64,000 nucleotides of DNA from Mytilus edulis (GCF_963676685.1 NC_092350.1:3968001-4032000); one strand, 5' to 3'. Positions 1,372-43,100 are shown, numbered from the stretch's first letter. Notes: generated by a model not told the origin, from the sequence alone. Program-made: numbers and translations.

Positions 1372-2048
1372 TTGTTGTTGATATTGCAGTTTTTAACGAC
1401 ATTGACTGGCTACACACCCTCGCACGGTCGGCTAAAAGGTTTGTTGATGATGATGTTGATAATGATAGCAGTTTCTACCGACCTTGACCGGCTACACACT
1501 CTCGCACGGTTTGCCAAAAGGTTTGTTGATGATGATGTTGATAATGGCAGTTTTTAACGACCTTGACTGGCTACACACCCTCGCACGGTCGGTCAAAATG
1601 TTTGTTGATGATGATATTGATGATGATAGCAGTTTTAAACGACCTTGACTGGCTACACTGCTCTCGCACGGTCGGCCAAAATGTTTGTTGATGATGATGT
1701 TGATGATGATAGCAGTTTTTACCGATCTTGAAGGGCTACACAGCCTCACACGGTCGGCCAAAATGTTAGTTGATGATGACGGCAGTTTTCACCGATCTTG
1801 ACTGGCTACACAGCCCTCGCAGGGTCGGCCAAAATGTTAGTTGATGATGACGGCAGTTTTTACCGATCTCGACTGGCTACACAGCCCTCGCACGGTCGGC
1901 CAAAAGATTTGTTGATGATGACGGCAGTTTTTACCGATCTTGACTGGCTACACAGCCCTCGCACGGTCGGCCAAAAGATTTGTTGATGATGACGGCAGTT
2001 TTTACCGATCTTGACTGGCTACACAGCCCTCGCACGGTCGGCCAAAAG
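1372..2048. repeat. Minisatellite of about 9 units, 71-83 bp (about 3 more copies at 2834-3063)
   Basis: Unit GTTGATGATGACGGCAGTTTTTACCGATCTTGACTGGCTACACAGCCCTCGCACGGTCGGCCAAAAGATTT; period 71 (1911->1982). Left-hand units are longer because of (GAT)n expansion. Confidence 0.92.
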
Positions 2049-3849
2049 GTTTCTTTATCTAAAACTAAGACTAGTTTTGATTCTAACAATATCATAGACA
2101 AATTTATTTATTAATCATATCCATCGCATATTTTCATGTAACCTTTTAATTATGAGTTTCAAACAAAAAGATGTAGACATGAGTTCAACGTTATGCTATT
2201 TTATTTACCGTTTATCTTTAATTCTAAGAGTCACAACCCTTTACAGCCAGAATTCTATTTCGTCAAATATATCTCCCCATTCCGACGTTCGTAAAGAAAA
2301 TGAAAGCGAATTGTAGGAATGACGGATGCGCTGCCAAAGTTATCAAATGTACCAGGATTATAATTTAGTAAGCCAGACGCGCGTTTCGTCTACATTAGAC
2401 TTATCAGTGACGCTCATATAAAAATATTTATAAAGCCAAACAAGTAAAAAGTTAAAGAGCATTGAGGATCCAACATTCAAAAAAGTTGTGCCAAATACGG
2501 CTAAGGTAATCTATGCCTGGGATAAGAAAATCCTTAGTGTTTCGAAAAATTAAAAGTTTTGTAAACAGGAAATTAAGAAAAATAACCACATTATTGATGT
2601 TCATGTCAACACCGGAACGTCTACCAGCAGTGGTATCGACCCAGTGTTGTAAAAGTTATCAAAGGTACCAGGATTATAATTTAGTACGCCAGACGATTGT
2701 TTCGTCTACACAAGACTCATCAGTGACACTCATATCAAAATATTTATAAAGCCAAACAAATAAAAAGTTGAAGAGCATTGAGGATTCAATATTCCAAAAA
2801 GTGGTTCCAAATACTGCTAGGTAATTTATGCCTGCAGGGTCGGCCAAAATGTTAGTTGATGATGACGGCAGTTTTTACCGATCTCGACTGGCTACACAGC
2901 CCTCGCACGGTCGGCCAAAAGATTTGTTGATGATGACGGCAGTTTTTACCGATCTTGACTGGCTACACAGCCCTCGCACGGTCGGCCAAAAGATTTGTTG
3001 ATGATGACGGCAGTTTTTACCGATCTTGACTGGCTACACAGCCCTCGCACGGTCGGCCAAAAGGTTTCTTTATCTAAAACTAAGACTAGTTTTGATTCTA
3101 ACAATATCATAGACAAATTTATTTATTAATCATATCCATCGCATATTTTCATGTAACCTTTTAATTATGAGTTTCAAACAAAAAGATGTAGACATGAGTT
3201 CAACGTTATGCTATTTTATTTACCGTTTATCTTTAATTCTAAGAGTCACAACCCTTTACAGCCAGAATTCTATTTCGTCAAATATATCTCCCCATTCCGA
3301 CGTTCGTAAAGAAAATGAAAGCGAATTGTAGGAATGACGGATGCGCTGCCAAAGTTATCAAATGTACCAGGATTATAATTTAGTAAGCCAGACGCGCGTT
3401 TCGTCTACATTAGACTTATCAGTGACGCTCATATAAAAATATTTATAAAGCCAAACAAGTAAAAAGTTAAAGAGCATTGAGGATCCAACATTCAAAAAAG
3501 TTGTGCCAAATACGGCTAAGGTAATCTATGCCTGGGATAAGAAAATCCTTAGTGTTTCGAAAAATTAAAAGTTTTGTAAACAGGAAATTAAGAAAAATAA
3601 CCACATTATTGATGTTCATGTCAACACCGGAACGTCTACCAGCAGTGGTATCGACCCAGTGTTGTAAAAGTTATCAAAGGTACCAGGATTATAATTTAGT
3701 ACGCCAGACGATTGTTTCGTCTACACAAGACTCATCAGTGACACTCATATCAAAATATTTATAAAGCCAAACAAGTAAAAAGTTGAAGAGCATTGAGGAT
3801 TCAATATTCCAAAAAGTGGTTCCAAATACTGCTAGGTAATTTATGCCTG
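1819..3849. repeat. 1015-bp near-perfect tandem duplication (1819-2833 / 2834-3848)
   Basis: Identical ORFs at 2513 and 3528 (offset 1015); junction cctG|cagggtcggcc; one substitution noticed (2760 vs 3775). Confidence 0.93.
2338..2834 (-). mobile_element. Retrozyme (hammerhead tandem repeat), about 1.5 units; HHRs at about 2370-2415 and 2686-2731
   Basis: Same family as 29525-30088. The first HHR has CUGAUAA (G8A). The second has an intact core with a variant stem-III loop (GAAAC-AAUC-GUC). Confidence 0.85.
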
Positions 3850-4057
3850 GGATAAGAAAATCCTTAGTGTTTCGAAAAATTAAAACAGGAAATTTAGAAA
3901 AAAAATACCACAGTATTGATATTCATGTCTGCACCGGATTGTTGACTACTGGGTTGGTGATACCCTCGTGGACGAAACGTCCACCAGCAGTGGCATCGAC
4001 CCAGTGGTGTAAAAATTATGACAGGTACCAGGATTATGATTTAGTACGCCAGACGCC
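3353..4057 (-). mobile_element. Retrozyme array, about 2 units; HHRs at about 3385-3430 and 3701-3746
   Basis: Duplicate of 2338-2834 extended by another unit, ending in tagtacgccagacgc. Confidence 0.85.
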
Positions 4058-4124
4058 AATTCAGCCAATTTAGCTCTTGAAAACCAATTAATTTATCAAA
4101 ATAGCACAATTACGAACCTTATAC

Positions 4125-6720
4125 AAGAGGGTCGAAATATACCAAAGGGACAGTCAAACTCATAAATCTAAAGCAAACTGACAAAACAAACTGACAACGC
4201 CATGGGTGAAAATGAAAAAGACAAACAGACAAACAATAGTACACATGACTCAACATAGAAAACCATAGAATAAACAACACGAACCCCAGCAAAACCTAGG
4301 GGTGATCTCAGGTGCTCCGGAAGGGTAAGCAGATCCTGCCCCACATGTGACACCCGTGGTGTTGCTTATGTGATATCAAATCCGGTAAATAGTCTTATTC
4401 GGTAGGTCACATTCATAAAAGGAAAGGGGGTTGTAGTTATCGTATTGGCTGAATATCGTATCAATTGGGAGATATATACCCTGTATGCAGGTGCTACTAG
4501 AATGTTGCTACTTAGAAATGGAAAGTTCTTAATTGGAAAGCTGAAATCATCTCTTTTGTCGTAAAGTTTTGTTTTCAACCAATCCTCATTGTCAATTTCT
4601 AGATATTAGTCAAGATATGAAGCCGACTTAACTGTATCTGTAGTATCCTTTATCTCTTGTTCAATGGGAAAGATGCGTTCCACATAGTCACCAAATTTTG
4701 AATTATTTAGTGAAAGAACATCATCTATATAGCGGAAAGTAGAGTTAAAATATATTGCTAACTTCTTATCTTTCTTCCTTAGAAGTTACTGCATGAAGTC
4801 AGCTTCATAATAAAAAAGAAATAAGTCGGCAAGTAGAGGGCACAGTTTGTTCCCATTGGAATGCCGACAGTCTGTTGAAAAACACGTCCTCCGAACGAAT
4901 ATGTTGTCAATAAAAAAATCAAGCATCTTGATTATATCAGTTTCCGAGAACTTTTTGTTTGAATCAGAGTGGACCTTTACAAAGTAGGATTTATTCCTTT
5001 CTAAGACAAGATGCTTGTATCTACGTTTTCCATTATTTTTTATGAAGCAAAGCAATACCACCTTTTTTAATTTGTCTTTTAGTTTGGAATGTGGAATACT
5101 TGTGTAAAGAGTAGAAAAGTCAAATGTGTTAATACTGTTACAAGATGAAAGAGAGTAAGATTGTATGTAATCTAAAATATCTTTGGAATTTTTAAGTATC
5201 CACATCTGATTTACGCCACCTCTAGAATAGGCAGTTTCACAATAACTTTGAAGCCCGTCTTTGATTGCTGATAAAATAGATGTTAATAATTTAGAAAGAG
5301 GTTTCGTGGAGCACTTGGAAGACCCAGCAATACACCGTTGTTTGTAAGGAAACTTATGTAGTTTAGGTATCCAATACAGTGGTGGAAGATCTAGTTCTTC
5401 GTCTTTGATTGAAATTCCAAAGGAGCAAAGAACAGACCTATGATTATCCAGGATTTCCTCTTTGGTAAGTGTCGTGAGGGTATATGTTGGGTTTCCAAGT
5501 GAATTGTCAATACCTAATTTGTTTATCAAGCAGTTAATGTAATGACTTTTACACACAAAAACGATGTTATTTGGGGCTTTGTCTGCGGGGACAAGAACAT
5601 ATTTATCATAGAGGTCGGATAGGTGTTGAGCAACATTTGGGTCTTTAAAGATTGACGTAGCATGGGCATTGATGGACCAATTCAGTTTCTTAATTCTGAT
5701 TTGTATCAACGACCTCACTGCCCTTATCCATTCGAAAAGAGAGTCTACGTCTTCCTTCTTGCGCTTAGTCCATTGCCATGGCATAATCCTCGACTGTATC
5801 CATCACAATTTTAAAGTTGTATTTGCAATTGATGGATTTAGGCTCACGATATTTTGGACCTTTCGATAACAAATTTCGTAGATAGAGAAGTGTTATTAAC
5901 AATGTTAAGGTCACCGGTAATAACGTGGCCAGCAGGATTATATGTGAATTGGAAACTAGCACAAGTGCAACCAGGAGGTTTAGACTTAATGTCGTCAATA
6001 TCGAGATCCTGCAAAATGTGTTTGTAATTGAAAATTTTAGTTGCAATAGATTGGTATAGGTATCGGAAATGATTGGTACAGACTGGTCTATGAAATAAAG
6101 AGGTATTTTCTATTCGACTAATTTATGATGAAGGATATTGCCTACGTTGTCGCCATCGAAACCTTTGTTGGCAGAGGAAAGAGTAAGGAAAGATCTTTTC
6201 TCTTTTTCATCTTTTCCAATGCGGACTGGCTTGAAAAGTCTGTGACTTACAATATCCGAAATTATAGCTTCAAGTTTGTATTAGTTTGAATGAGGGTTTG
6301 TAACAGTGGATTCCAAACATAATTTGAACAGAGAATGCAGTTTTGTAAGGGGTAATGAATAAAGTTTCGTGCGAATGTGATGAATACCTAACGGCTGTTG
6401 TATAAATGACAGCAGGTCATTAATGGAGACATCATGCAGAAAAGGTGATGTATAATGACGATGACCATGACTGTGTCTACCTCGAGGAGTCGAGTTGAAA
6501 ATATTCATCACATTCACCGAGTTACACGAAGGACTAGACAGAATACCTATACCATCAATTTGGTCATTGCAACCATAAGGTGTCACAGTTTCCAATTGTC
6601 TAATCAAGTAGTCTTTTTGTCTACGGAGAGTCGTTGAAAGATTAGAATTGTTAGAGCTATGGTATAGCTTTTCGATAGTGCGAACTGTCATATAAACGAT
6701 GGAATAATCGGGCCAATAGA
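4125..6720 (-). mobile_element. Penelope-like retroelement with N-terminal GIY-YIG endonuclease (Naiad-type), decayed and 5'-truncated
   Basis: Motif order on the minus strand: GIY-YIG C-terminal motif (RRQKDYLIRQLETVTPYGCND), linker CTC...PAGHVITGDL, RT motifs LYWIPKLHK, DFSTLYTSIPH, VGIPMGTNC, FRYIDD (about 4720-4737), thumb TKLYDKRDDFSF / YISQLIRYS, then a 3' UTR repeated many times in the window. Several frameshifts and an internal deletion near 4441. Confidence 0.85.
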
Positions 6721-7589: not shown

Positions 7590-7919
7590 CAGTGGAGATC
7601 ACTTCTATGCTCTTCAACTTTTTACTTGTTTGGCTTTATAAAAATTTTTTGAGCGTCACTGATGAGTCTTATGTAGACGAAACGCGCGTCTGGCGTACTA
7701 AATTATAATCCTGGTACCTTTGATAACTAACCTCTCATTAAATATGCCAGGAGAACTGTTCTAGAACAGTACGTAGAACTGTCAGCCTGACACCTTTTAG
7801 TCAGTTCTAGGGTAGAATTGTTCTAGGTAGAACTGTTCTAGGACAGGTTAGAACAGTTCTATGACAGATATTCTGACATTCTGACAATTCTAATGAGAGG
7901 TTAGAAGTGATCTCCACTG
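7590..7919. mobile_element. Tc1/mariner-type MITE (TA TSD, 29-bp TIRs); left TIR split by a retrozyme fragment
   Basis: TA-CAGTGGAGATCACTTCT[7607-7728 insert]AACCTCTCATTA ... TAATGAGAGGTTAGAAGTGATCTCCACTG-TA. Confidence 0.88.
7651..7696 (+). ncRNA. Type I hammerhead ribozyme, intact core
   Basis: GCGUCA CUGAUGA GUCU uaugu AGAC GAAA CGCGCG UC^ UGGCGU; predicted cleavage after 7690; palindromic stem III (ACGCGCGU). Confidence 0.9.
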
Positions 7920-9214: not shown

Positions 9215-12200
9215 CTATGTGCATCTCTCGAAAGTTTGGGTCATCTTTGCGCCACTTTCCAGTACTTCCGCAACCTTAAATGACAATCAGTTGCTATGAC
9301 ATCATTGTCGATATCATTATGATTCATTCGTAATAGTTTATTAGTAAATGTTCATAATTTTTACGCAACATACGTCAGACACAATAAAAAGTAATTAGTA
9401 TATTATTACAGCTACAAAATAAAACTGGTTTTGTGACAGATAGTTGGAAAAGTTCAATTTGTTTAAAAGTACACATACAGTTACATTGTAAGTAGTTTTT
9501 TCAAAATCGGCTATTATTTTTTATATTCGGGATGGGGTATGTTTGAGTGCAGTGGTAAACAAGATCCTGTAAACTAAACAAATTGATTTTGATCAGTTGA
9601 AATAAAATATTCTTAAGTTTAAAAACGACTGTGTTTCAATAAACCCTTATCAAGTTTATATTTCAGGTATGTTTAAAAACAGTTGCACTCAATATATAAA
9701 ACGTTTAAGCATTCTATAAAGCTTTTTCATCGCTATTTTTCAAAATTTTCCTTTGTTCTTACGGATTGATAATTTCATTTCTCAGCGGTGTCGAGTGATT
9801 TGAAAACTATCGCTAGAAACTAAGGAGACACGTGGCGTTGCTAATGAAATTGATATGAAATTGATATGAAATTGATAACGTCTTCATAGGTAAAATAGCG
9901 ATAAACAGATTATCTCTGGTCATCTCAACCGTACCGGCTCAAGCGACAAAATCAATCGCGTTAAGATGATCAACGATAATCTACAAGTAGCGATTCGCAA
10001 TATCAGTCTCAGAAGTACGATGTGATTTATGTGGTTGGTTTATAAATAATTTAATTTTTAATGTAACGCGTCTTCTGATTGGTTGACGTTATTTTCTTAT
10101 CAGCCCGTTGGCATAATTTGGTCATGTGTTTGTGTCGTCATCGCAACGGTTTTTAATGGTGTTCTACGGTTTAAAATAAAATTTAGAATTGAATTATAAG
10201 AAATGAATGTAACATTTATTCAGGCTTTCTATTCGAAATAGCATAAAAAATGTGGTGCACACTGTTAAATAACCCGCTACGCGAGTTATTCAGTGTGCCT
10301 CAATTTTTATGATATTTCTTCATAGACAGAAAAAATATTACAGTCATTCCTTAAATAAATAAGGTGATGTGTTATGATTTGCAATGAGATTTTTCCCATA
10401 CAAATGGCATGGCTACAGTAGGGTCCATAAACATTATTAATTTAATGAATACTCACTGCTGTCATTTTATTTCCTTCAACTGTTCGTACAAGTTTTATAT
10501 TTTTCCAACCACCTGGTAGTTCCATTTTTTCCAATACAGTCATTTTGGAATCCGAGTCAAATGTGATAGTAATCTAAAACACAAAGATAGTTATCAAAGA
10601 TACCAGGATTATAATTTAATATGCCAGACGCGCGTTTCGACTATATTAGAATCATCAGTGACGCTCAGATCAAAATAGTTATAAAGCCAAGCAAGCACAA
10701 AGTTAAAGAGCATTAAGGACCCAAAATTCAAAAACGTTGTTCCAAATACGGCTGAGGTAATCTTTGCCTTGGATAAGAAAATCCTTAGTTTTTAAAAAAT
10801 TTCAAAGTTTTTATCAAAATGACCATATTATTGATATTCATGTCTACACCGAAGTGCTGACTACTGGGCTGGTGATACTTTCGGGGACAAAACATCCAGC
10901 AGCAGTGGCATCGACCCAGTGATGTAAATAGTAACTGTTATCAAAGTTATCCGGACTATAATTTAATACGCCAGACGCGCGTTTCGTCTACATAAGACTC
11001 ATTAGAGGACCGTAGTAAAAAAAAAAATTTTAAGCGAATAGCTAATTTACAAGATATCATTAATAGAAATGGGAGCGGGGCGAAAATTGGGATGATGTGT
11101 TTCATTTATATATTAATGAAACAGAAAGTAATGTTAACGTAAACAACATTTCGGACTGTTTTGTGCTGAACGTCCATTCTGGACAAAACATAATATTCAA
11201 AGTCGGCAAAATGGTTTTACGCCTTGTCTCCGTGGTGCATACCTGACATAAAACCAGTAGATTCCTGTTTTACAAGACCTGAAAGTAAGTATAAGCTTCC
11301 ATACACCCACTCATGTGTTTGAACAACTGAAGATGGATCATACACATGTATAATAAATGTTCATATTTGTGAACAGTCTCCAATTCCTCAATCTTGCATA
11401 GGGAAAAGTAAAATCACAAAAATACTGAACTCCGAGGAAAATTCAAAGAGTCAAGTCAATACATGTAATCAAACGACAAAATCAAAAGTTCAAACACATA
11501 AAAAGAAAAAGTAAATTATAATGATACACTTCAATTTTGACTACCTTAAGACATTGTCCAAATGAGTTTTTCGTCACCAATTCCTTCCCCTCTTCGTATG
11601 TATTAGTTGATTTAGGTGTGTTATTTGATTCATTTGTAATTGAGAACGTATCTCCATCTTTGGTGAACTCAAATGTCCATTTAGATTCTTGGTACTTTTT
11701 AATCATTTCATCTGTGAAGCCTGCAAGTTAATTAATACATGTATAATCAATACGTTAAAAAAGCTGAGACTGAGACAAAAAACAAGCATAATTACATGGA
11801 AAACTTAAACTAGGATTTCATTAAATTCCGTTGTCATTCTGCTGATTGTATATTTTAATTTGTAACCGGCTATATATTTTTGCAATAAATACACAAATTC
11901 TTTGGTCGTCATCGTAAATTAATCCCTATATCAAACATTGACCAAGATTCTAAAATTACTAATAAACCTTAACTGTCTTATTTATACAACGTGTACCATG
12001 GTATCGGATTTGTTTCGTATCTCGATACTATAATCCGTTCCCTTTTCATAAATGTGACCTAGCTAATTAGACTATTTACCGATTTTGTAATTACATGAGC
12101 AACATGACAGGTACCACATGTCGAGCAGAATCTGCTTACCATTCCAGAGCACATGTGATCATCCCAGTTTTTGGGTGGGGTTCATGTTGCTTAGTCTTAC

Positions 12201-14539
12201 AGTTTTCTTTGTTGTGTCTTGTGTACTTTTTCTTTGTCTACGTTTTATTTCATTTGTCCGTTTTTTTATCTATGAGTTTGAAAGTCTCTCTGATTACTTT
12301 CGACCCTCCTTTGGTAAATGATATCATTAGTGGGTTTTATTTCCTCCCTTATCGTGACTTATGGTGGACACAACTTTTGGGCATTTTTTCACAAGTTTTG
12401 AGTGCATGCTATTCCGACTACCTAGAATTTAGTATTGTATTTTGAACGATCATATTACTTTAGATAACACATTATTTAATTTGATATTCATTTTAGTAAC
12501 ACTATTTGCCTTTAATTATTAATCTGAACAGAATCACTGCTGTTACTTTGGGTCTTTGTGTTTTATAGTTGTATTTGATGCTTTGTTTTGTTCTGATGAC
12601 TCAAGTCATTTTTAAATTATTGTGGCTTTATATTTGATTTTTGCTTATTGTTTAAGACACAATAAGATGAAAATACAATACTAGTATTATGATATATAAG
12701 ACCGAAACGGGTTTTCGTTACTATTCAGTACATATGCAGGTTATAAAAAAGCATGCTCTCGTCTATCTGTGTATCGTCAAGTTAAACATTTAGTAGATAG
12801 GAATTCACTTATACGTATTTATTATGCTTTTATTAGACCTATATTAGAGTATGGTGATGTTGTATGGGGCAATTGCTCCCCAGTTCGAGTCTGAGCTTCT
12901 TGAAAGTATTCAGATAGAAGCCGCTAGAATTATTACAGGCTTACGACGTAATTCCTCCAGACAAAAACTTTATATTGAATTAGGTTTAGAAACTATGGAG
13001 AATAGACGTAATAAACATAAGCTTATTCTATTTTATAAAATATTAAATGGGATGACACCTGCATACGTATATGAGTTAGTCCAGCCATATCTTCCCAGAC
13101 AAACCCCTTATACTTCGAGGAATGAAAATAACACTTTTCATCCGCCTCTTGCTAGAACTAGCTCTTATCTTAATAGTTTCATTCCTTCCACTGTAAAACT
13201 TTGGAAACGTCTTCCTTTGAGTTGCAAAAATCCCCAAGTTTGGGTATATTTAAAAGTTGACTGGAAAAATTTATAGGACTGAAGATATATTTAAACCTTT
13301 TAACTATGGTATAAGGAAACTTAATATAGCTCATTGTCAACTCAAAATAATGCTAGCAACCTAAAATTTCATCTGTTTAATCAGTTCTTATCAGAGAACA
13401 CTTTTTGTGTAAACTGTAACCACCCTGTTGAAGATAACAAACATTTCTTTTTCAGTTGCCCTAAGTACAATGTTGTAAGACAGATCCTTCTTGATTCCAT
13501 TTACTCCATTGCTGATTGGAAACAGATTCTTTTCATATGATACGAATATTGCTATTTTTAAATCTGTTCAAAAATATATCAGTGACACTCACGTTTTGTT
13601 TAAAACATACTTATTTTTTTTGTTTTATTTATTTTTATTTTTTTTTCTCTTCCACTTTAACATTAATTCATTTTATCCACTAAGCAAGCTTAGTTTCTCT
13701 TTCAAGCCATATATATATATATATGTTGTAGGGTTGTCACTGACTCAGACGTACTTATGAATATAATTATTTTCTGTGACTGTATCTTACATTAATTTGT
13801 AGGATCCTTTACTATAGATAATTTAGCTGATCTGTAACAATAACATCTTCATGCCTTATATATCATGTTCTGTAGTACGCCGCTAGATTAAAACTGACGT
13901 GGAAAGGTAACACATGCCCACCGAAAGCTCTTTTTTGAGAGCCCAGGTGGTCGTGTGGTCTAGCGGGACGGCTGCAGTGCAGGCGATTTGGTGTCACGAT
14001 ATCACAGTAGCATGGGTTCGAATCCCGGCGAGGGAAGAACCAAAAATTTGCGAAAGCAAATTTACAGATCTAACATTGTTGGGTTGATGTTTAGACGAGT
14101 TGTATATACATTATGTACACAGCCATGTATCACCATCATTGATGGCGATCCGATGGATACATCTGTTGTAGGGTTGTCACTGACTCAGACGTACTTATGA
14201 ATATAATTATTTTCTGTGACTGTATCTTACATTAATTTGTAGGATCCTTTACTATAGATAATTTAGCTGATCTGTAACAATAACATCTTCATGCCTTATA
14301 TATCATGTTCTGTAGTACGCCGCTAGATTAAAACTGACGTGGAAAGGTAACACATGCCCACCGAAAGCTCTTTTTTGAGAGCCCAGGTGGTCGTGTGGTC
14401 TAGCGGGACGGCTGCAGTGCAGGCGATTTGGTGTCACGATATCACAGTAGCATGGGTTCGAATCCCGGCGAGGGAAGAACCAAAAATTTGCGAAAGCAAA
14501 TTTACAGATCTAACATTGTTGGGTTGATGTTTAGACGAG

Positions 14540-14611
<72 letters not shown>

Positions 14612-15195
14612 TTAAATACACAAAAAGAGTTTTAAAAGCAGCATTGTCTAGCGCTTTCATCCATCTTGGGACTTTTCAAGACTATGAACGTCGTTATGAA
14701 CGTCGTTATGGGGAACACATTAGTATTATGACGTAACGTCATTGTTCGTAAAATATAAGTAGTATGACGCAACGTTATTGTATATATATATATATATTTC
14801 TAATGACTTATAAAGAATATTTGCATGTTTCAAGGTTCTTGAATACATGATGAGTAAATGCCTATATATTCTTAATATACTTTGCATTTAGTAAGTAACA
14901 CTGTAAACATATATTTTCTCGTGTGTGCTCATAAGTAGCATGCATGTTTCACTATATTGCAATATTTTAAATACAGTTGTTATAATTGAATTATACCTTG
15001 AACATGTAATACGGAGAGAGTTTTTATAGGCTGTGCCTGTTGCTCAATCCTTTTCAATTTGAATAAAATATGTTTAAAATCAAATATGCAGATATGCATA
15101 ATAAATAAAAAATAAAAAAACTGACCCAATACTTTTCCTACAGCTTCGATGTTGGTCATAGATACTGAATTCCATTTTCCTAAAAATTGAGCCAT
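9215..15195 (-). CDS. FABP: Fatty acid-binding protein (FABP/iLBP family), 4 coding exons: 15126-15195, 11545-11720, 10457-10573, 9215-9274; about 140 aa
   Basis: Spliced by hand with GT-AG introns in phases 1,0,0, the typical FABP structure: MAQFLGKWNSVSMTNIEAVGKVLG/FTDEMIKKYQESKWTFEFTKDGDTFSITNES...GQCLK/ITITFDSDSKMTVLEKMELPGGWKNIKLVRTVEGNKMTA/VAEVLESGAKMTQTFERCT*. Has the N-terminal F-x-G-x-W lipocalin/FABP motif. AATAAA on the minus strand at about 9096-9101. Confidence 0.88.
10587..11004 (-). mobile_element. Retrozyme, about 1.2 units, in FABP intron 2, same sense as the gene
   Basis: Begins tagttatcaaagatacc. The HHR at 10621-10666 has a damaged stem II; a second partial HHR at about 10968-11006 has CUAAUGA. 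Confidence 0.82.
13724..14541 (+). mobile_element. Partial tandem dimer (period 440 bp) of a tRNA-like-promoter element inserted in (TA)n
   Basis: 13724-14101 repeats at 14164-14541 with a 62-bp spacer; (TA)n on both sides. Confidence 0.85.
13941..14035 (+). ncRNA. tRNA-derived Pol III promoter region (Leu/Ser-like, not a functional tRNA); further copies at 14381-14475 and 36538-36632
   Basis: A box TGGTCGTGTGG (13948-13958), B box GGTTCGAATCC (14015-14025), long variable-arm-like segment; acceptor and anticodon stems pair poorly. Confidence 0.75.
14541..14605. repeat. (TA)n microsatellite
   Basis: About 32 TA units. Confidence 0.97.
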
Positions 15196-17586: not shown

Positions 17587-18046
17587 TTGACAAAACTTTG
17601 AATTTTTCGAAAAACTAAGGATTTTCCTACCCCAGGAGCAGATAACCTTAGCCGTATTTTGCACAACTTTTTTGAATTTTGGATCCTCAATGCTCTTCAA
17701 CTTTGTATTTTTTCGGCTTTTTAACTATTTTGATCTGAGCGTCACTGATGAGTCTTATATAGACGAAACGCGCGTCTGGCGTATAAAATTATAATCCTGG
17801 TACTTTTGATAACTATTTACACCACTGGGTCGATGCCACTGCTGGTGGACGTTTCGTCCCCGAGGGTATCACCAGCCCAGTAGTCAGCACTTCGGTGTTG
17901 ACATGAATATCAATTATATGGTCATTTTTATAAATTTTCTGTTTACAAAACTTTGAATTTTTCGAAAAACTAAGGATTTTCTTACCCCAGGAGTAGATAA
18001 CCTTAGCCGTATTTGGCACAACTTTTTGGAATTTCGGATCCTCAAT
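17587..18046 (+). mobile_element. Retrozyme, about 1.3 units, with an intact hammerhead at 17737-17782
   Basis: GAGCGUCA CUGAUGA GUCU uauau AGAC GAAA CGCGCG UC UGGCGU; acaaaactttgaatttttcg recurs at 17590 and 17945 (355-bp period). Confidence 0.9.
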
Positions 18047-24389: not shown

Positions 24390-26894
24390 TTAAATGTTTG
24401 TAATCAAGCCATCTGTAAGCAACATCCTCAGTTTCCTCCAAGTACCATCCAAGTCCTCTAGACTTTTCGGCCATTGTATAATAAATGCATAGTTCCAAAT
24501 GTACGAAAACTCTACAGGAATATCAGTAATTGTTATATCTTTTGTAATTATAATGATACGCTCCAGATTTTTTGTAATTCTTTCATATTTTGCCCTGTCA
24601 AGTTCGAACATGCAATCATGTGACGATAGGAATTCGGGCGTGATCAGAAATATAATTGACCTGCTGTTTTGAATGCTCTCTGCCTCGTTGTCTGCTTGAC
24701 TCGGTCCAGGTAAAAAATCTCTATCTTTTATACACATTGTCAGCCCCCATTCCTCTTCAAGTTTTGGTATTAGTACATTTTTAATCCAAATGACAATATC
24801 TCCTTCATATGATATATACACGTCATATTTGTAAATTCTCCAGACTTTGTGCTCAACAACACGGCGAATTACTCCATATATAGAGAAGATGATTTTCCAT
24901 CTCTTGTGATAGGCTAAAAGTAACATTGAGATCGTTATGGTTGTAGATAATAATGTTGATGCAAAAGTTAACCACATAGTATTCTTACAGTCTGCAAACA
25001 AGTCATATAAAGAGTTGTACGCTATAAGTGTATCGATAATTGTGCCGTTAGACAATTTACATTTATATGATCGGCTGTCAAGATTGACTTTTGTAGTCTG
25101 AATCCACCTTATAAAGTCTATAGTGTCACAATTGCACTCAAATGCATTATCAGTGATCTGTAACGTCATTCCATGCAGTTCTTGCATCTTATCTGCCCAG
25201 CCTCTGATAGCTGAGCTCACACTTGTTAATCGATTCTTCCTTACGTCCAGCATTTTTACCTTGTTATGTTCGCTCAGTTGTACCGGAATAGACTGAAATG
25301 AATTTTTACTAAAATAGAGATATGTCAAGTTTGGCATTGGATTTAATAAGTCGTCCGGAAAATACCAAATATCATTTTCAGATATATCCATATACTCGAT
25401 AGATCTAGTATCTTTGAAGAACTGGTTTCCGTATAGTCTTATGGCAATATCTAGGTCAGCTTTTTTCCATACAATCGTTTTCAGAGTGTTATAGGGAGAA
25501 CGTTTTAATTGATTCCATGCAAATGAATAATCTCCACCATTAGAAATAAATGTTTCCAGTCGAATTTGAAGAATAAGTATGGCAAGATTTGTATTTGAAT
25601 AAGATACATCGACATATATAAGGCTGTTATTTTTAGGAACTATCAAATACATTTTTGGAAACGTATTTGCTATTGTGTAACTAAGATCTATTTTTTCAAG
25701 TGACTTTGGTAATATCACACAACTGTGAAATGAACAATTTAAATCTGAATTTGAAGTATCTGAAATTTTCCTCTCATAGTTGACAGCATTATATGAATAG
25801 TCCAACGATTTCAATCTAACAGTATTACAAAAAAAAATTTGTATCTCATTTAGATTCTTCTCGCTAAAAAGCAAAAACCTGTTCCCTTTAAAGGAAATAT
25901 GTCGTAAACATTTCGGGTGATCGAAGGAAAGCAAAGATCCAGGCTCATAATCAACTATTCCATTTTCTGATAAATCTAGATTTTCTACACAAATTGTTTT
26001 CAGGTTCTTCATTATGTCCGCTGTAATTGTCAGAACATACGGTATATCGGCACTGTCTATACTAACGTCACTCACATGACCAAAGTTTATTGTCGTAATA
26101 GTGGCATTACGGTATGGGTGTAACAGCTGCAATGCGTGCTTCAAATGCATGAACGTTCCAGAAAAATCTATCACACGGAGGTTCGGAAACGGTAACAATG
26201 CGTTGTCTTCTGTAGCTACAAAGTGCAATCGACAATTTCTGAGAGTTAGCTGTTCTATAGACGGCGAAAACTTTTCAAAGGTTTTATTTGACAAGCGAAC
26301 TAAATAACATGAGTCGAAGTCTATTTCTTTTATGGTTTTTATTTGACCGAATCCATCTCCAAAGTGTGGCAAAGGCATAATATCGAGTCCTAAGAAAGAC
26401 AACTCCGTCAGAATACTGAATGCATGATCAGGATAATTAAAATCCGTAACAAAATCTATCGGTTGAGGCATATTTCTCCTGATATCCAATTTTGTCAAGT
26501 TTTTTATTGGATGAAAAAGTTCTGCAGAATAAACGTTAGAAAGATTAAGTATATTTTCAGACATGTCCAGTATTGTAAGTTCGCGTAGTCCTTAAAATGA
26601 TTTGTTAGATAAATAGGCAAGTTGATTTTGTCTAAAGAAAAGTTCTTCCAAATATTTATAATTAACAAAAGAATTGTTCCCAATCATTCGTAACAGATTA
26701 AAACTCATATCTAAAACTTTAATATCTCCCGGTAAATCCTGAGGTATAAAAGTTAGTCCTTTGTTTTTACAATCTGCTATTTTTACTTCCTCATTTTCCT
26801 TAAATTCATATTTGATATTGCAGACTGATGCATGCACGAATTCATTACAGATGATGATAATAATTAATACTGAAAAATTTATAATCCTCTCCAT
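24390..26894 (-). pseudogene. TLR: Toll-like receptor TLR-A (signal peptide-LRR-LRRCT-TM-TIR) with a single in-frame nonsense codon
   Basis: ORFs 26592-26894 and 24390-26564 are in the same frame, separated by TAA at 26592-26594 where paralogue TLR-C has CAA. The span is 2505 bp, the same as TLR-C. Motifs: LRRCT NAFECNC...C...C, TM WLTFASTLLS, TIR YDVYISY / RDFLPG. Confidence 0.9.
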
Positions 26895-28822: not shown

Positions 28823-29524
28823 ATCAACTTTTTAATTTCTATTCTATGCCTTTTTGTTTTTCTTTGTTACATATTTGTTTATTATTAAAATGAAAACCTA
28901 ACGTGACTTATTCCCGAATGTGACTGTTTTTATGAGTGTGAATTCGTATTCATTTACAGTTAAGACGTGGCATGGTACTTATCAATCCCAAACTAATTTG
29001 TTGGGTTTTGATGTCGTGTTTGTTGTTTTCATCGAATTTTTACAAATGTTTAAAAGTTTGTTGTTGTAGAAAGTATTTGTTCTGTTGTATCATTGTGTTG
29101 TATTGGGGGATAACTACTCATCCAGTTCATTTGGTAGATTCAACTTTGAATCAACGAAATTTACACTATATATTTGGTTTGCAGTTTGATCAGAAGAAAC
29201 AACCACAAAACTAGATAATACAATTAATTATTTAATTAATACTGCTTCAATTAAATATTAATTAGTATTATAATTTTCACTGTTATTAATATAAATTAGA
29301 TGAGTCATATAAATCTAATCTTGAATTTCATCCAAATTCTCTTAATTTTCGGAACACGTTTCAGAAATTTATATATAACGGCACTTTCGGCGTTGCATTG
29401 ACTATTGCCAACAGGGCTGTGGTTTTGTTATTTATTCGGTTTTTTTTTCTATAGCTAGTCACCACATCAGTTTAATCATGTATATCTATTACATTGTCAT
29501 TTTATAACATTTACTGTTTGCAAA

Positions 29525-30088
29525 TAGTTATCAAAAGTACCAGGATTATAATTTTATACGCCAGACGCGCGTTTCGTCTACATAAGACTCATCATTGACG
29601 CTCAGATCAAAATAGTTAAAAAGCAAAACAAATACAAAGTTGAAGAGCATTGAGGACCCAAAATTCCAAAAAGTTGTGCCAAATACGGCTAAGGTAATCT
29701 TCTCCTGGGGTAAGAAAATCCTTAGTTTTTCGAATAATTCAAAGTTTTGTAAACAGAAAATTTATAAAAATGACCATATAATTGATATCCATGTCAACAC
29801 CGAAGTGCTGACTACTGGGCTGGTGATACCCTCGGGGACGAAACGTCCACCAGCAGTGGCATCGACCCAGTGGTGTAAATAGTTATCAAAAGTACCAGGA
29901 TTATAATTTTATACGCCAGACGCGCGTTTCGTCTACATAAGACTCATCAGTGACGCTCAGATCAAAATAGTTAAAAAGCCAAACAAATACAAAGTTGAAG
30001 AGCATTGAGGACCCAAAATTCCAAAAAGTTGTGCCTAATACGGCTAAGGAAATCTACTCCTGGGGTAAGAAAATCCTTAGTTTTTCGA
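29525..30088 (-). mobile_element. Retrozyme, about 1.6 units of 355 bp; HHRs at 29558-29603 (C3A) and 29913-29958 (intact)
   Basis: agttatcaaaagtaccagg at 29526 and 29881; inserted into an older opposite-strand copy (about 29465-29524 and 30089-30290). Confidence 0.92.
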
Positions 30089-31164
30089 CAAACTATGTAT
30101 TATTCTTGATAGTAATGATGTTTTGTCCCAGAATGATAACCCTGGCCTCACAACTTTTTTGGAACTTTTAGTCCTCGGCGATCTTTAACTTGGTAGTTGT
30201 TATTGCTTTCAAACTTTTTACACTTGAGCATAGTTTTGTGTGGACGTAGCGCATGTCTGGTCTATACAATTATTTTGTTAACCTGTTAACTTGAGATGGC
30301 TATTATTCGTTTGTTTCTCTGTCCTATATTTTCTTTCATTTATCTGTTTATTTATTGTAACCCTGTCGTGTAGTGTTGTAATTCCAATGTTATAATTAAC
30401 ACTATCATTAAAGCGGGAGGTTCGGCATGCCCTAAAACCAGGTTCAACCCACCATTTTTTCATAAAATGCCCTGTACCAAGTCAGGAAAATGGCCATTGT
30501 TACATTATAGTTCGTTTCTCTGTGTGTTATGTTTCGGTGTTGTGTCTCTGTTGTGTCGTAGTTCTCTCTTATATTTGATACGTTTCCCTCAGTTTTAATT
30601 TGTAACCCGGATTTGTTTTTTTCTCTATCGATTTATGATTTTTTAACATCGGTATACTACTGTTGCCTTTATTTATCACACAATATTGACTGTTATATCT
30701 CTATATTTGACATTTGTACCTATTACGTCTGTTTGTTTTGTTTACTCATCTTAGTCAATGTAATGGAATTGAATTTGACTGTAATACAAAGTAAACGTTC
30801 AGCAACCTATAAAACCAGGTTAAATCCACCATATTCTACGACAGAAAATGTCCGTACGAAGTCCGGAATATGACAGTTATCATCCCTTTGTTTGATGTGT
30901 TCGAGCTTTTGATTTTACTATTTGATTATGGAATTTCCGTTTTGAGTTTTCCTCGGAGTTCAGTATATGTGTGATTTTACTTTTTATGAACCATATCAAA
31001 AAACGACAACCACTGGACTAAGGTTAATGTCGGTTAATATTAATTTATTATTTACCCTCTGTTTTGAAAAATTTGCCCTAAAAAGAACTTTTCAATATGC
31101 ACAGACGATAAAAAAAAATAAAACAGTCGTGATCCGGAATAGCAGCATACCGCGTTATCTTTAA

Positions 31165-35740: not shown

Positions 35741-36462
35741 ATGATGAGAATTATAGTTTATTCAGTGTGCTGAATTACCAAGGCTTTTTAAATGCGATAT
35801 ACAATACGATTCTAATGAGAAAGTAACGATAGCTACTGACGTCTATACCTGAAAATATACCGAGTCATATTAACGTTTTAGATCTGAGTTCAAATGAGTT
35901 AAGTGAAATTGATATCAATTCTTTTGTGAATTATACAGATTTCCAAGTTCTCAATTTGACAAATAATAAACTGAATACGTTATCTAGAAAAGCTTTTCAA
36001 GGATTAAGCAAACTTTCTGTGCTGAACATGTCTCACAATATGCTTGATTTATCTCAGGATTATTCTGTAGAATTATTTCTTCCAATTCAAAATTTAACGA
36101 CATTGGATATAAGTTATAATATAAAACAATCATATGAAGCTAAAGGTTTTAATTATCCCGATCATGCAATTAGTGTTATGTGGGGGTTGTCTATCTTAGT
36201 AATTGACATGATGCCATTACCTCAATTCGGAAGTGGATTCAGTCGATTAAATAACCTGAAAGAATTACACTTTCAATCTTGTTATTTAAAACGTCTTGAG
36301 AATAAAACGTTTCAGAGATTTTCCTCTTCCTTAGAAGTTCTTACTCTCAGAAATTGTTTGTTATACTTTGTGAATACTGAAGTTGATGCTTTGCTGCCAA
36401 ATCTTCGAGTTATAGATTTTTCTGGAACGTTTCTGCATTTGAAGCCAGCACTGCAACTATGA
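35741..36462 (+). pseudogene. TLR: Toll-like receptor TLR-B, 5' fragment only
   Basis: Close paralogue of 55352-56110. It has about 20-bp and 17-bp deletions near the start, a 6-bp deletion (LLPNL vs LLPFPNL), and is truncated after LKPALQL, where the tRNA-like element begins. Confidence 0.88.
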
Positions 36463-36466
36463 AGTA

Positions 36467-36718
36467 TGTAGTACGCCGCTAGATTAAAACTGACGAGGAA
36501 AAGTAACACACGGCTAGCGAAAGCTCTTTTTTTGAGAGCCCAGGTGGTCGTGTGGTCTAGCGGGACGGCTGCAGTGCAGGCGATTCGGTGTCACGATATC
36601 ACAGTAGCATGGGTTCGAATCCCGGCGAGGGAAGAACCAAACATTTGCGAAAGCAAATTTACAGATCTAACATTGTTGGGTTGATGTTTAGACGAGTTAT
36701 ATATATATATATATATAT
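36467..36718 (+). mobile_element. 5'-truncated copy of the tRNA-like-promoter element followed by (TA)n
   Basis: Matches 13871-14101 and has the same 3' end ...AGACGAGTT(AT)n. Confidence 0.87.
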
Positions 36719-38471: not shown

Positions 38472-40976
38472 TTATGTGTTTGTAATCAACCCATCAGTGA
38501 GCAGCATCCTCAGTTTCCTCCAAGTATCATCCAAATCCTCTAGATTTTCCGGCCATTGTACAATAAATGCATAATTCCAAATGTACGAAAACTCTTTAGG
38601 AATATCAGTAATTGTTATATCTTTTGTAATGATAATAATACGCTCCAGATTCTTTGTAATTCTTTCATATTTTGCCCTGTCAAGTTCGAACATGCAATCA
38701 TGTGACGATAGGAATTCGGGCGTGATCAGAAATATAATGGACCTGCTGTTTTGAATGCTCTCTGCCTCGTTGTCCGCTTGACTCGGTCCAAGTAAAAAAT
38801 CTCGATCTTTAATACACATCGTCAGTCCCCACTCGATCTCAAGTTTAGGTATTAATACATTTTTAATCCAAATGACAATATCCCCTTCATATGATATATA
38901 CACGTCATATTGGTAAATCCTCCAGACTTTGCGCTCAACAACACGGCGAATAACTCCATAGATAGAGAAGATGATTTTCCATCTCCTGTTATAGGCAAAA
39001 AGTAACAGTGAGATCGTTATGAATGTCGATAATAATGTTGATGCAAAAGTTAACCACATAGTATTCTTACAGTCAGCAAACAACTCATATAAAGAGTTGT
39101 ACGCAATAAATGTATCAATTACTGTGCCGTTGGACAATTTACATCTATACGATCGGCTGTCTAGATAAACTTTTGTAGTCTGTATCCACCTTATAAAGTC
39201 TATATTGTCACAATTGCACTCAAATGCATTATCAGTGAGATGTAAAGTCATTCCATGGAGTTCTTGCATCTTATCTGCCCAGTCTCTGATAGCTGAACTT
39301 ACACTTGTTAATCGATTCTTCCTTACGTCCAGCATTTGTACTTTAGTATGATCACGCAGTTGTATCGGAATAGACTGAAATGAATTTTTACTTAAATAAA
39401 GATATGTCAAGTTAGGCATTGGATTTAATAAGTCGTCTGGAAAAAACCAAATATCATTTTCAGATATATCCATTGACTCGATAGATCTTATACTGTTAAA
39501 GAATTGATTTCCGTATAGTCTTATTGCAGTATCTAGGTCGGCGTTTTTCCATACAATCGTTTTCAGAGTGTGATAGGGAGAACGTTTTAATTGATTCCAT
39601 GCAAATGAATAATCTCCACCAGTAGAAATAAATGTTTCCAGTCGAATTTGAAAATCAATCATAGGAGCATTTATGTTTGAATAAGATACATCCAGATATG
39701 TAAGGCTGTTATTTTTAGGAACTAATAAATAAATTGCAGGGAAAGTATATGCTATTGTGTGACTGACATCTAATTTTTCAAGTGACTTTGGTAATATCAC
39801 ACAACTGTGAAATGAACAATTAAAATCTAAATTTGAAGTACCTGAATATTTTATACCATAGTTGACAGCATTATATGAATAGTCGAACGATTTTAATCTA
39901 ACAGTTTTACGGAGAAAATATTGTATCTCATTTAGTTTCTTCTCGCTAAAAAGCAAAAACCTGTTCCCTTTAAAGGATATATGTCGTAAACATTTCGGGT
40001 GATCGAGGGAAAACAAAGATCCAGGCTCATAATCAACTATTCCATTTTCTGATAAATCTAGATTTTCTACACAAATTGTTTTCAGGTTCTTCATTATGTC
40101 CACTGTAATTGTCAGAACATACGGGATATCAACCCTGTCAATACTAACGTCACTCACATGACCGAAGTTTATTGTCGTAATACTTTTATTACGGTATGGT
40201 TGTAACAGCTGCAATGCATGCTTCAAATGCATGAATGTTCCAGAAAAATCTATAACATGAAGATTTGGAAACTGCAGCAATGCGTTATTGTCTGTGACAA
40301 CAAAGTGCAACCGACAATTTCTGATAGTCAGCTGTTCTACAGAGGATGAAAACCTCTGAAAGATTTCATTCGACAAGCGAACTAAATAACATGAGTCGAA
40401 GTGTAATTCTTTAAGAGTGATCATGTGACCGAATCCACTTCCAAAGTGTGGCAAAGGCATCATATCGATTCCTAAGAACGACAACTCCGTCAGAATACCG
40501 AATGCATGATCGGGATAATTATAATCAGCATCAAAGTCTATCGGTTGAGGCATATTTCTCCTGATATCCAATTTCGTTAAGTTTTTAATTGGATGAAATA
40601 GTTCTGCGGAATAAACGTTAGATAGATTAAGTATATTTTCAGACATGTCCAGTATTGTAAGTTTGTGTAGTCCTTGAAATGAGTTGTTAGATAAATAATC
40701 AAGTTGATTTTGTCTCAAGAAAAGTTCTTGCAAGTATTTATAATTAACAAAAGAATTGTTCCCAATCATTCGTAGCAGATTAAAACTCATATCTAAAACT
40801 TTAATATCTCCCGGTAAATTCTGAGGTATAAAAGTCAGTCCTTTGTTTTTACAATCTGCTATTTTTACTTCCTCATTTTCCTTCAATTCATATTTGATAT
40901 CGCAGACTGATGCATGTACGAATTCATTACAGATGATGATAATAGATAATACTGAATACAGTATAATCTCCTCCAT
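38472..40976 (-). CDS. TLR: Toll-like receptor TLR-C, intact, 834 aa, single coding exon (single-cysteine-cluster type)
   Basis: Uninterrupted ORF. The first ATG (MEEIILYSV..., 40976) aligns with the TLR-A start; the ORF-track start at 41003 is a GTG. Signal peptide, LRRNT (C...C), LRRs, LRRCT, TM, and TIR box1 YDVYISY, box2 RDFLLG, box3-like TWRKLR. Confidence 0.93.
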   Translation of the reverse strand: MEEIILYSVLSIIIICNEFVHASVCDIKYELKENEEVKIADCKNKGLTFIPQNLPGDIKVLDMSFNLLRMIGNNSFVNYKYLQELFLRQNQLDYLSNNSFQGLHKLTILDMSENILNLSNVYSAELFHPIKNLTKLDIRRNMPQPIDFDADYNYPDHAFGILTELSFLGIDMMPLPHFGSGFGHMITLKELHFDSCYLVRLSNEIFQRFSSSVEQLTIRNCRLHFVVTDNNALLQFPNLHVIDFSGTFMHLKHALQLLQPYRNKSITTINFGHVSDVSIDRVDIPYVLTITVDIMKNLKTICVENLDLSENGIVDYEPGSLFSLDHPKCLRHISFKGNRFLLFSEKKLNEIQYFLRKTVRLKSFDYSYNAVNYGIKYSGTSNLDFNCSFHSCVILPKSLEKLDVSHTIAYTFPAIYLLVPKNNSLTYLDVSYSNINAPMIDFQIRLETFISTGGDYSFAWNQLKRSPYHTLKTIVWKNADLDTAIRLYGNQFFNSIRSIESMDISENDIWFFPDDLLNPMPNLTYLYLSKNSFQSIPIQLRDHTKVQMLDVRKNRLTSVSSAIRDWADKMQELHGMTLHLTDNAFECNCDNIDFIRWIQTTKVYLDSRSYRCKLSNGTVIDTFIAYNSLYELFADCKNTMWLTFASTLLSTFITISLLLFAYNRRWKIIFSIYGVIRRVVERKVWRIYQYDVYISYEGDIVIWIKNVLIPKLEIEWGLTMCIKDRDFLLGPSQADNEAESIQNSRSIIFLITPEFLSSHDCMFELDRAKYERITKNLERIIIITKDITITDIPKEFSYIWNYAFIVQWPENLEDLDDTWRKLRMLLTDGLITNT

Positions 40977-41158
40977 ATTGTGACCTGAATATCTGAAATA
41001 CACTTCGCGAAGTACTAGATGTTAAGTAATCCTCTCCATATTGTGACCTGAATATCTGAAATACACTTCGTGAAGTACTAGATGTTAAGTAATCCCCTCC
41101 ATATTGTGACCTGAATATCTGAAATACACTTCTTAAAGAACTAGCTGTTAAGTAATTC
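40969..41158. repeat. 63-bp triplication spanning the TLR-C start codon
   Basis: ctccatattgtgacctgaatatctgaaatacac at 40971, 41034 and 41097; single copy in TLR-A (about 26889-26950). Confidence 0.93.
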
Positions 41159-42015: not shown

Positions 42016-42899
42016 TATAAATGCGACATTTATTCATTTTAATTAAAAAATCTTTGTTACATAACAACCTTATGAAAACTAGGGCCTGTTTATCGAAACG
42101 GTCCTAAAATAATCCTATAAGGTATTCTTAGGACAGTCATTATCATAAAGTTAGGACCGACTTACGACATGTCTCAGCATGCACATCTAAGCTATTTTCG
42201 GATTATCTTAGATAGGATATCAACGATAACAGTTGTACCATTTGATTATTTTCTTTCACATATACGAAAGGCAACTATTCAATAGTTTGCAACTTCAATG
42301 AAAACATAATATGTTCGTTTTGTCTGTATGACACGTGTCATTGGTGGTAACAATATTTTATTATGCATCATACAAGTACATTTTATATTCAATTTCACAA
42401 AATGGATTCAGAAACAAGCAACAAGTGTTTATATTAATCTGTTTCCGTAATAAATAAATACATTAAAGCAATAAAAAAAGCATGCTCTGTTTAATTAGCG
42501 CGCGGTTCTACATTAGAATCAATGTTAGTCTGGCCATTCGGTCCAAGTGCTAAAGGTCTTTCGGTCATTTATGAGTGAAATTGGCATGCATAAATACAAA
42601 TTCAAAAATAAGAAAGCAATGAATGAGGTTGTTGAATTTGATATATGACTTTTTGTGCCCGTGCTTCTTGTTAAATATTTGTATGTTTTTATTGTGATTT
42701 AGATACTTGTGGTACTTGTAAATCCTGTCATTATTGTTCATGATGCTTTGTAACATATATGACGTGGCCCTGTATTTATACATCCCGTTATTTTGTTATT
42801 GTACTATGGTAAATGTATGTATTCTTGTCTTTAATGTGTGCTAATACAATGTATGATTGGTCTATTTGCCATTTTGTTCCTGTTTGTTACTATGGCTTT

Positions 42900-43100
42900 T
42901 CGACCTCATGAATATAATACCTTATCTGTATTTGACAAAACTATTATGACTTTTGGTCCTTTAATGCTCTTCAACTTCGTACTTTATTTGGCCTTTTTAT
43001 ATTTTTGGGATTCGAGCGTCCCTGATGAGTCTTTTTTAGACGAAACGCGCGTCTAGCGTAAAAACAAAACTTTATCCTGGTATCTATGATGAGTTAATTT
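42900..43100 (+). mobile_element. Diverged retrozyme fragment with hammerhead core at 43014-43059
   Basis: GAGCGUCC CUGAUGA GUCU uuuuu AGAC GAAA CGCGCG UC UAGCGU; core intact, stem I weakened. Confidence 0.8.

Follow-up and report, generated by a model that had tools for sequence, protein, structure and literature searches.

The window analysed here, a stretch of 64,000 nucleotides from Mytilus edulis (GCF_963676685.1, NC_092350.1:3968001-4032000), contains a cluster of Toll-like-receptor-type sequences at 24390-26591 (-), 35833-36462 (+), 38472-41021 (-) and 55343-56920 (+), the first recognised by LRR and TIR, the second by LRR, and the other two by DNA similarity. Two adjoining open frames at 45369-48185 (-), the longer of which has a strong RVT_1 match, are probably an old LINE. 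Further features are a set of 71-bp tandem repeats with a 1016-bp duplication of 99.9% identity (1386-3849), the duplication being recent or an assembly artefact, a 338-aa stop-to-stop frame with no Pfam match (4786-5802, -), and a 427-bp tandem unit in 2.6 copies (43681-44795) with no BLAST match to the 440-bp family described below. A canonical type I hammerhead (Rfam RF00163) lies at 17739-17782 in a separate repeat family, to which self-BLAST relates copies near 2336-2834, 3351-4056, 7604-7729, 10587-11005, 29518-30095 and 42889-43090; it is probably the described mussel retrozyme.

The subject of this work is a repeat of 440 bp, non-coding (its longest ATG frame spans 62 aa), which is present as two insertions (Table 1). 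Self-comparison of the window finds 378 of 378 positions identical between 13724-14163 and 14164-14541, and 95.5% identity for a third copy at 36467-36698. T6 runs occur at 13931-13936 and 14371-14376 and T4 runs, inside the unit, at 13770-13773 and 14210-14213; both insertions finish at ...AGACGAGTT and continue into (TA)n. As to position, the initial annotation, made from the sequence alone, was correct for all three copies, for their T runs and internal T4, for both promoter boxes and for the tail hairpin with the common 3' end. Its (TA)n borders hold for insertion 1, whereas the third copy has TA on its 3' side only. This copy sits 9 nt past the break of the LRR frame that begins at 35833, the 3' part of which is missing there; no empty site or TSD is readable for it, the Toll-like-receptor paralogues continuing differently and the 3' flank being unrelated. 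The A and B boxes are assigned by match to their consensus. Both an internal Pol III-type promoter and a T run about one unit downstream are present as annotated, and of the tRNA-like character once ascribed to this region the promoter boxes stand but the tRNA fold does not: ARAGORN reports 0 tRNA genes in the promoter region, and the arrays give no tRNA match at E<=5.

Table 1. The 440-bp element, its parts and its immediate neighbours in the window.
Feature	Position	Strand	Remarks
(TA)7	13710-13723		5' of insertion 1; belongs to the target microsatellite
Insertion 1, 1.86 units of the 440-bp family-1 element	13724-14541	+	random 5' truncation; the main one of the fixed 3' ends
Second fixed 3' end signal (CAGAC, 5 nt, TAT)	13744-13758	+	recurs at 14184-14198
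Predicted long hairpin across the unit junction, T run as loop	13882-13964	+	recurs at 14322-14404
Hammerhead-like string (A4, CTGACG-T, GAAA at 13923-13926, GC-TC, T6)	13890-13936	+	A9U in insertion 1
Invariant motif AAGGTAACAC	13904-13913	+	longest motif unchanged across three families
T run, predicted Pol III terminator and putative joining point	13931-13936	+	
Predicted unit-length Pol III transcript	13937-14376	+	begins at the first purine past one T run and extends to the T run that follows; putative start and end
A box	13948-13958	+	consensus match
B box	14015-14025	+	perfect consensus match
Tail hairpin and main 3' end signal (TAGAC, 6 nt, TATATA)	14069-14108	+	recurs at 14509-14541
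(TA)32 target run	14542-14605		common to insertion 1 and the Penelope 3' fragment, tail-to-tail
Neptune-like Penelope 3' end, family A, 5'-truncated	14606-14781	-	99.4% over 176 nt; same TA run
Insertion 2, 5'-truncated copy of the older A9 subfamily	36467-36698	+	followed by (TA)10 at 36699-36718

Families and arrays

Exact copies of the 28-base tail hairpin number 6371 in the 1.37-Gb genome, against 0 for the control, and many units of this family, termed family 1, are 99-100% identical. Two sister families share its layout at 53-63% pairwise identity among the three: family 2, of 475 bp, with copies 98-100% identical, is as young as family 1, and family 3 measures 435 bp. The A and B boxes are clear in family 2 and weaker in family 3, in which the B box is imperfect. 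No match was recognised as a fourth family by a covariance model run over 88 of the 236 collected sequences or by one genome pattern. At one locus (L171:1160-1700) a family-3 unit follows a family-1 tail directly, with the TATA boundary as the joint. At least half of the sampled element words are present, in a comparison of presence only, in 20 public runs from 11 studies that bear four organism labels and one metagenome label.

The short family-1 units stand in tandem, with neither an LTR nor a defined 5' end, and the arrays reach 14 full units. Among the arrays with at least four units, 3 of 33 are identical throughout (L097 with 10 units, L220 with 8 and L216+ with 4), and both inverted halves at L216 carry one haplotype. 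The version of the T run is often fixed inside an array and different between arrays, several junction variants having T4 only. Homogeneous arrays with array-specific junction versions match the prediction for a rolling template; local expansion after insertion could give the same. Although the single arrays L199, L207 and L212 look ABAB or of period 3, dimer or trimer circles as a source of periodic arrays were rejected: among 25 arrays 5 showed perfect periodicity, where shuffling gives 5.9 (P=0.75). Reading the junction as a ligation scar is weak, and a hairpin loop tolerates change: the junction shows 38 haplotypes in 109 and, with T-length changes and old copies removed, 16 in 76 against a mean of 6.3 (P=4e-4, for a bin picked post hoc), while the adjoining bin holds 14 in the same filtered test.

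Insertion anatomy and Penelope-like partners

Insertion ends were tabulated for 217 unique segments, those cut by a locus edge being left out. The 3' ends fall at the tail in 143 segments, at the second site, some 97 bases beyond, in 36, and elsewhere in 38; in an earlier segment set, TA directly follows 139 of the 151 segments that end at the two fixed sites. Positions of the 5' ends are spread throughout the unit. This table agrees with the initial annotation as regards ends that are fixed at the 3' side, of which there are two, and run into TA, and it removes position 13724 as the start of the element: with 5' ends so scattered, 13724 is one of many random truncation points, and the reading of insertion 1 as a 378-62-378 TRIM therefore fails.

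A DNA-level origin more generally, as a Helenus-like TRIM of that kind or by Helitron/Helentron rolling circle, had been kept in view by the annotation and is contradicted by the same scatter, which leaves no LTR; we consider it most improbable. Helitrons, like the element, can have tandem arrays, a hairpin near the 3' terminus and a 3' end that is fixed, but the ends of the element show neither TC...CTRR nor subterminal inverted repeats, by which Helitrons and Helentrons would be recognised, and TG...CA ends and a PPT are also absent. Helenus has tRNA-like LTRs and occurs in Mytilus (PMC10886601), yet the Mytilus Helenus LTRs, as far as the available text describes them, measure 182-183 bp and have 4-bp TSDs, whereas the element has other lengths, no defined 5' end and a 62-bp piece that does not end in a purine tract. 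Inverted halves, hybrids with Penelope copies and strand-specific RNA with covarying structure, all taken up below, also speak against a DNA-level origin.

The unit junction is crossed by 109 of the 143 tail-ended segments. A linear monomer as template would cap such segments at about 165 bases, and the template must therefore have been circular, re-copied or multimeric. The 5' ends lying within 10 nt of 13937 number 11 of 179, against 8.5 expected, and thus form no pile-up. A tRNA-derived SINE with a 5' tRNA head was rejected on the same counts, as 109 of 143 segments extend past the head and no pile-up occurs there.

An inverted family-1 partner is found at the 5' end of 44 of the 217 segments, and an inverted family-3 partner at that of 3. 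Penelope insertions have been described with an inverted, 5'-truncated partner at the 5' end (PMC8557442), and the 44 segments thus follow the Penelope pattern. The fixed 3' end, the variable 5' truncation, the partial tandems and the microsatellite target are Penelope-like traits as well. The element is a young, very abundant, non-coding 440-base mussel repeat with Penelope-type insertion anatomy.

In addition, 5 of the 217 family-1 segments adjoin a 5'-truncated Penelope copy head-to-head, at 93.6-100% identity, the copies belonging to families A, B, D (twice) and E (loci L085, L087, L097, L100 and L166). These loci are a non-random set: L087 and L097 were chosen for a known nearby copy, L085 and L100 came from a GIY-YIG list, and the fifth from a position-ordered list; three weak partner hits, two at junctions from the Naiad library and one to family E (73-82%), were excluded from the count. 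The partner families encode an RT with a C-terminal GIY-YIG and a CxxxxCxxC motif. The Neptune-like families also end in (TA)n, and families D and E have two 3' ends each, formed by TAGAC, 2-4 bases and TATA, which come near the two ends of the element. This short TAGAC-spacer-TATA motif is the 3' sequence shared with families D and E; there is no extended BLAST match to the sampled Penelope loci, the partner 3' ends compared being those of Penelope families. The head-to-head joints read as two halves of one insertion event that drew on two RNAs, and, as they involve four Penelope families, they do not single out one master. Fixed 3' ends in (TA)n, inverted partners and five Neptune-like joints together make Penelope-type mobilisation into (TA)n, as the initial annotation had suggested, highly probable.

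Naiad was considered as the partner and set aside, for no match to the four visible Naiad 3' ends was found and two motif searches were negative. A Naiad frame at L086 matches the published Mytilus Naiad protein by eye. At L099:2491-3178, 1.6 family-1 units lead, with orientation unchanged, into the 5' end of a long family A copy (3179-6602), possibly by a template switch. The Neptune-like 3' regions (14606-14781 (-) in the window; L082, L083 and L084) carry differing hammerhead-like motifs of their own, which by eye are of a variant U3-A8 type in family A, a standard minimal core in family B and degenerate in family D.

Transcripts and structure at the unit junction

Stranded RNA was available as three runs of one study, with the selection method unspecified, and about 6% of each run was examined. 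Reads from the element amount to 4695 of 8.71 M, 5958 of 8.25 M and 3844 of 7.34 M (0.052-0.072%), with a sense bias of about 8- to 100-fold by bin, so that the abundant sense RNA expected from the initial annotation is present and strongly stranded. Sense reads that cross the unit joint number 1643, 2156 and 1240, near full depth, and 8-9% of the reads run on into unlike sequence. In an unstranded run of another study (X24) the element makes up 0.003% of reads, of which 63% run on, a signal that looks like passive read-through. In run X21 about 930 sense reads cross the T run, compared with 1100-1400 in the head; depth falls from about 1820 to 1015 at 13900-13910, a drop of some 800, holds at about 940 through 13931 and then climbs to about 1175 by 13951, a rise of some 240 over 13932-13951. 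These depth changes fit linear molecules or priming bias equally well, and they imply that most head-covering molecules also cross the T run, with a linear share that has its ends near the junction being possible. The RNA is abundant, one-stranded and continuous round the unit, and short reads cannot separate a circle from a multimer. A linear permuted monomer is not the sole RNA.

The same reads could come from linear read-through transcripts of tandem arrays, made by Pol II or by Pol III running past the T run, in which case the hairpin would be local, no circle would form and the Penelope partner would be the same. Arrays of up to 14 units do exist, transcripts that span several units have been reported from Cassandra arrays (PMC7215508), and the reads cross the T run with genomic-type junctions: no scar (a shortened U run, a skipped GAGA or a deletion) appears at 1% of reads or more, although Pol III usually leaves fewer U's than its template has. 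Against a linear template, T6-T8 runs normally stop Pol III, reads that leave the tail into TA number 46-80 per run against about 1000-1500 that continue, 37 of 39 position-ordered genomic segments consist of at most two alignment pieces, and the predicted start and end of the transcript are just the parts that the stem described below would pair. On balance we regard a linear template as unlikely, with perhaps a fair minority of the chances.

A second alternative is the one proposed in the initial annotation, a retrozyme/SINE hybrid whose minimal hammerhead, acting as a dimer, would cut after GCUC and release circles or RNA of unit length. A hammerhead-like string is indeed present, and it agrees with the minimal Penelope hammerhead (PMC4209133) in its core, in the GAAA-GC-UC with a palindromic 15.2-16.2 pair and in having a short stem I. 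The minimal core (CUGANGA...GAAA, palindromic 15.2-16.2, UH) is matched in the A9 subfamily, though not in U9 copies or the sister families; the 36467 copy is the only one in the window with A9. The pattern fitted to the string, post hoc, occurs in 0 of 3000 shuffles. Genome copies divide into 1574 that keep A9 and 2881 with U9, of 4455 in total (A9U in 65%), while among sense reads A9 is found in 175 of 1608, 271 of 1893 and 178 of 1208, that is in 11-15%, A9U making up 85-89%. The preferential conservation of the core that a working ribozyme would lead one to expect is absent: families 2 and 3 lack the core altogether, the young 475-bp family included, and the hammerhead stems have 58% of cells paired with 0 two-sided changes.

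The remaining evidence points the same way. Stem II has 1-2 bp, compared with 7-8 bp in minimal hammerheads (PMC4209133), and its strand pairs with the A-box strand instead. The hammerhead fold, when forced on the best copy, reaches -12.3 kcal/mol against -39.1, a cost of about 27 kcal/mol. Rfam gives no match on the units while it detects the true hammerhead at 17739 in the same window, and Rfam, at E<=5, turns up no other ribozyme in arrays of the three families. At the predicted cut, after 13930, there is no step in RNA depth, but a ligated circle would lack one too and would mask such a cut; a Pol III transcript ending at T6 would, moreover, hold one cleavage site only. A hammerhead-driven cycle is improbable in our judgement, and of the proposed self-promoting hybrid there remain the Penelope mobilisation, the promoter boxes and the sense RNA, without the hammerhead. 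The string is likely an unneeded relic or look-alike; its fit to the minimal Penelope hammerhead core and stem III, and its absence from the shuffles, are the reasons why it may be a relic.

What appears, from the alignments, to be conserved and to covary is a stem that pairs the ends of the unit, and not the hammerhead stems. The predicted hairpin consists of three helices (13882-13888/13958-13964; 13911-13922 with the A-box strand; 13927-13932/13937-13942). In a fold of 13937-14376 the first bases pair with the last (z = -4.3), and circular folds give z of -5.5, -6.8 and -2.6; in RNA that continues past the junction, these pairs would make up the hairpin, looped by the T run. In an alignment of 17 rows, hand-picked for diversity and representing the three families, the hairpin is kept in all families and in old family-1 subfamilies, with 95.7% of cells paired and two-sided changes in 10 of 18 pairs (slid controls, 30-43%), part of the two-sided count in helix 3 arising from family 3 sitting one column off. 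Among 53 haplotypes, 3 of 6 pairs of the top stem covary, and RNAalifold recovers two of the three helices unprompted. In the folded units of families 1 and 2, T runs of at least 5 occur only at the junction.

The motif AAGGTAACAC lies mostly in an unpaired loop, and the ends of RNA fragments cluster at 13900-13910. Multimers might be cut in the AAGGUAACAC loop by an undescribed self-cleaving motif or a host nuclease, with RtcB closing the circles. That the longest invariant motif is mostly unpaired and coincides with the strongest fragment-end cluster would suit such a cut; however, 5' ends do not rise just downstream, depth is flat over 13916-13931, Rfam has no ribozyme match at E<=5, and hexamer priming in the open loop accounts for the cluster. 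We give a cut in the loop little chance of being correct. The invariant motif was also tried as a U6-type upstream promoter and rejected, being absent upstream of U6 genes; the U6 snRNA genes are themselves arrayed in tandem, at least 48 of them, with a repeat unit of 733 bp (L131-L145, G000:C10:45057210-45092312).

A proposed route and known elements

The reading preferred here is that of a Pol III transcript whose ends are paired and joined without a ribozyme and which is copied by a Neptune-like RT into TA runs. Pol III would start at the purine at 13937, 11 nt before the A box, and stop in the next T run, in which case only copies longer than one unit could act as sources. The first 30 or so nt would pair with the last 55 or so, leaving the U run as a nick, a structure that is predicted and to which the covariation points. 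A ligase of the host might close the nick, or the reverse transcriptase might bridge it; within this model, closure into a circle through the conserved stem that holds the ends, and not through a hammerhead, is likely. Insertions are seen to end at two TAGAC/CAGAC-spacer-TATA sites in (TA)n, where the Penelope endonuclease would nick the TA repeat and UAUA would prime. The Neptune-like enzyme would then roll the template into TA runs, and copying, to judge from the segments, runs through the junction with no excess of stops there; its products range from part of a unit to 14 units, and many have an inverted partner. We place the whole chain at about even odds (roughly 0.5).

The closest comparison is with metazoan non-LTR retrozymes, which include a 350-390-bp family of Mytilus galloprovincialis (Cervera and de la Pena 2020, PMC7229834). 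As these are described in the accessible texts (PMC7229834; PMC7761336; Li et al., bioRxiv 10.64898/2026.07.22.740005), they share with the element non-coding tandem units of a few hundred bases, highly self-paired and abundant RNA, and a proposed Penelope mobilisation from a circular template. The element differs from them in that no hammerhead is conserved, the units measure 435-475 bp, A/B boxes lie inside them and a T run marks their junction; the available text of PMC7229834 contains 0 mentions of Pol III, and the hammerhead family at 17739 is separate, with no BLAST match to the 440-bp unit. The element behaves like a non-LTR retrozyme and yet fails to show the hammerhead that defines one.

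A combination of Pol III and hammerhead in a tandem SINE, as the initial annotation proposed, would not be new and is already described in Schistosoma (PMC6765202). According to the portion of that paper available, the Schistosoma repeats are tandem and apparently transcribed by Pol III, and single copies cannot propagate, the upstream unit driving the next; there, an active hammerhead cuts the multimers, whereas active families of the mussel element have lost the core and keep the end-pairing stem. Non-autonomous Penelope-like elements such as Chlamydomonas MRC1 (PMC8557442) share head-to-tail multicopy insertions, 5' truncation and microsatellite targets, and were once mistaken for LTR elements. 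Elements of the MRC1 type generally share 3' sequence with an autonomous family, whereas here only the short TAGAC-spacer-TATA signal is shared, and the part of their description consulted mentions no Pol III boxes.

Cassandra and Helenus, of the TRIMp3 type (PMC10886601, PMC7215508), resemble the element in their small-RNA-derived Pol III promoter within a repeated unit and in their tandem arrays, and Cassandra also in its conserved fold (PMC7215508). They have LTR ends, a PBS, a PPT, 4-5-bp TSDs and LTR machinery, in contrast to the element with its lack of a defined 5' end; biv-TRIM (PMC6934838), as far as described in the available text, differs in ends or partner. The tRNA-derived SINEs of bivalves (Martelossi et al. 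2024, PMC11481361) have A/B boxes, a short body and a tail, like the element, but their partners are CR1, L2 and Nimb LINEs, and the element carries about 270 bp more upstream of the promoter. Six diagnostic motifs have 0 matches in the 8 readable supplements of PMC11481361. The literature searched holds no published description of the element, and Repbase, Dfam and key supplements could hold it under another name. The element reads as Penelope-mobilised and retrozyme-like, with Pol III boxes and with the predicted end-pairing stem where a retrozyme has its ribozyme.

The tandem and inverted insertions of Penelope elements have been said to call for an in vitro system as the next task (PMC8557442), and evidence on the life cycle is limited in the accessible text of the recent retrozyme work (bioRxiv 10.64898/2026.07.22.740005). 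An element of 440 nt that is young, accounts for about 0.05% of reads and is found joined head-to-head to Penelope copies thus offers a ready substrate for studies of Penelope insertion. We suggest, tentatively and at somewhat less than even odds, that it represents an animal group of retroelements with RNA circles made with neither ribozyme nor splicing, in which a unit-long Pol III transcript would be zipped, sealed by a ligase and rolled by a Neptune RT. If the RNA is circular, ribozyme-based searches miss a whole group of genomic RNA circles; if the proposed route is true, Penelope elements would have a SINE-like partner, and circular RNA a further route of formation. Thousands of recent insertions have been added to mussel genomes by this element, and one of these, in the window, lies where a Toll-like receptor gene is broken.
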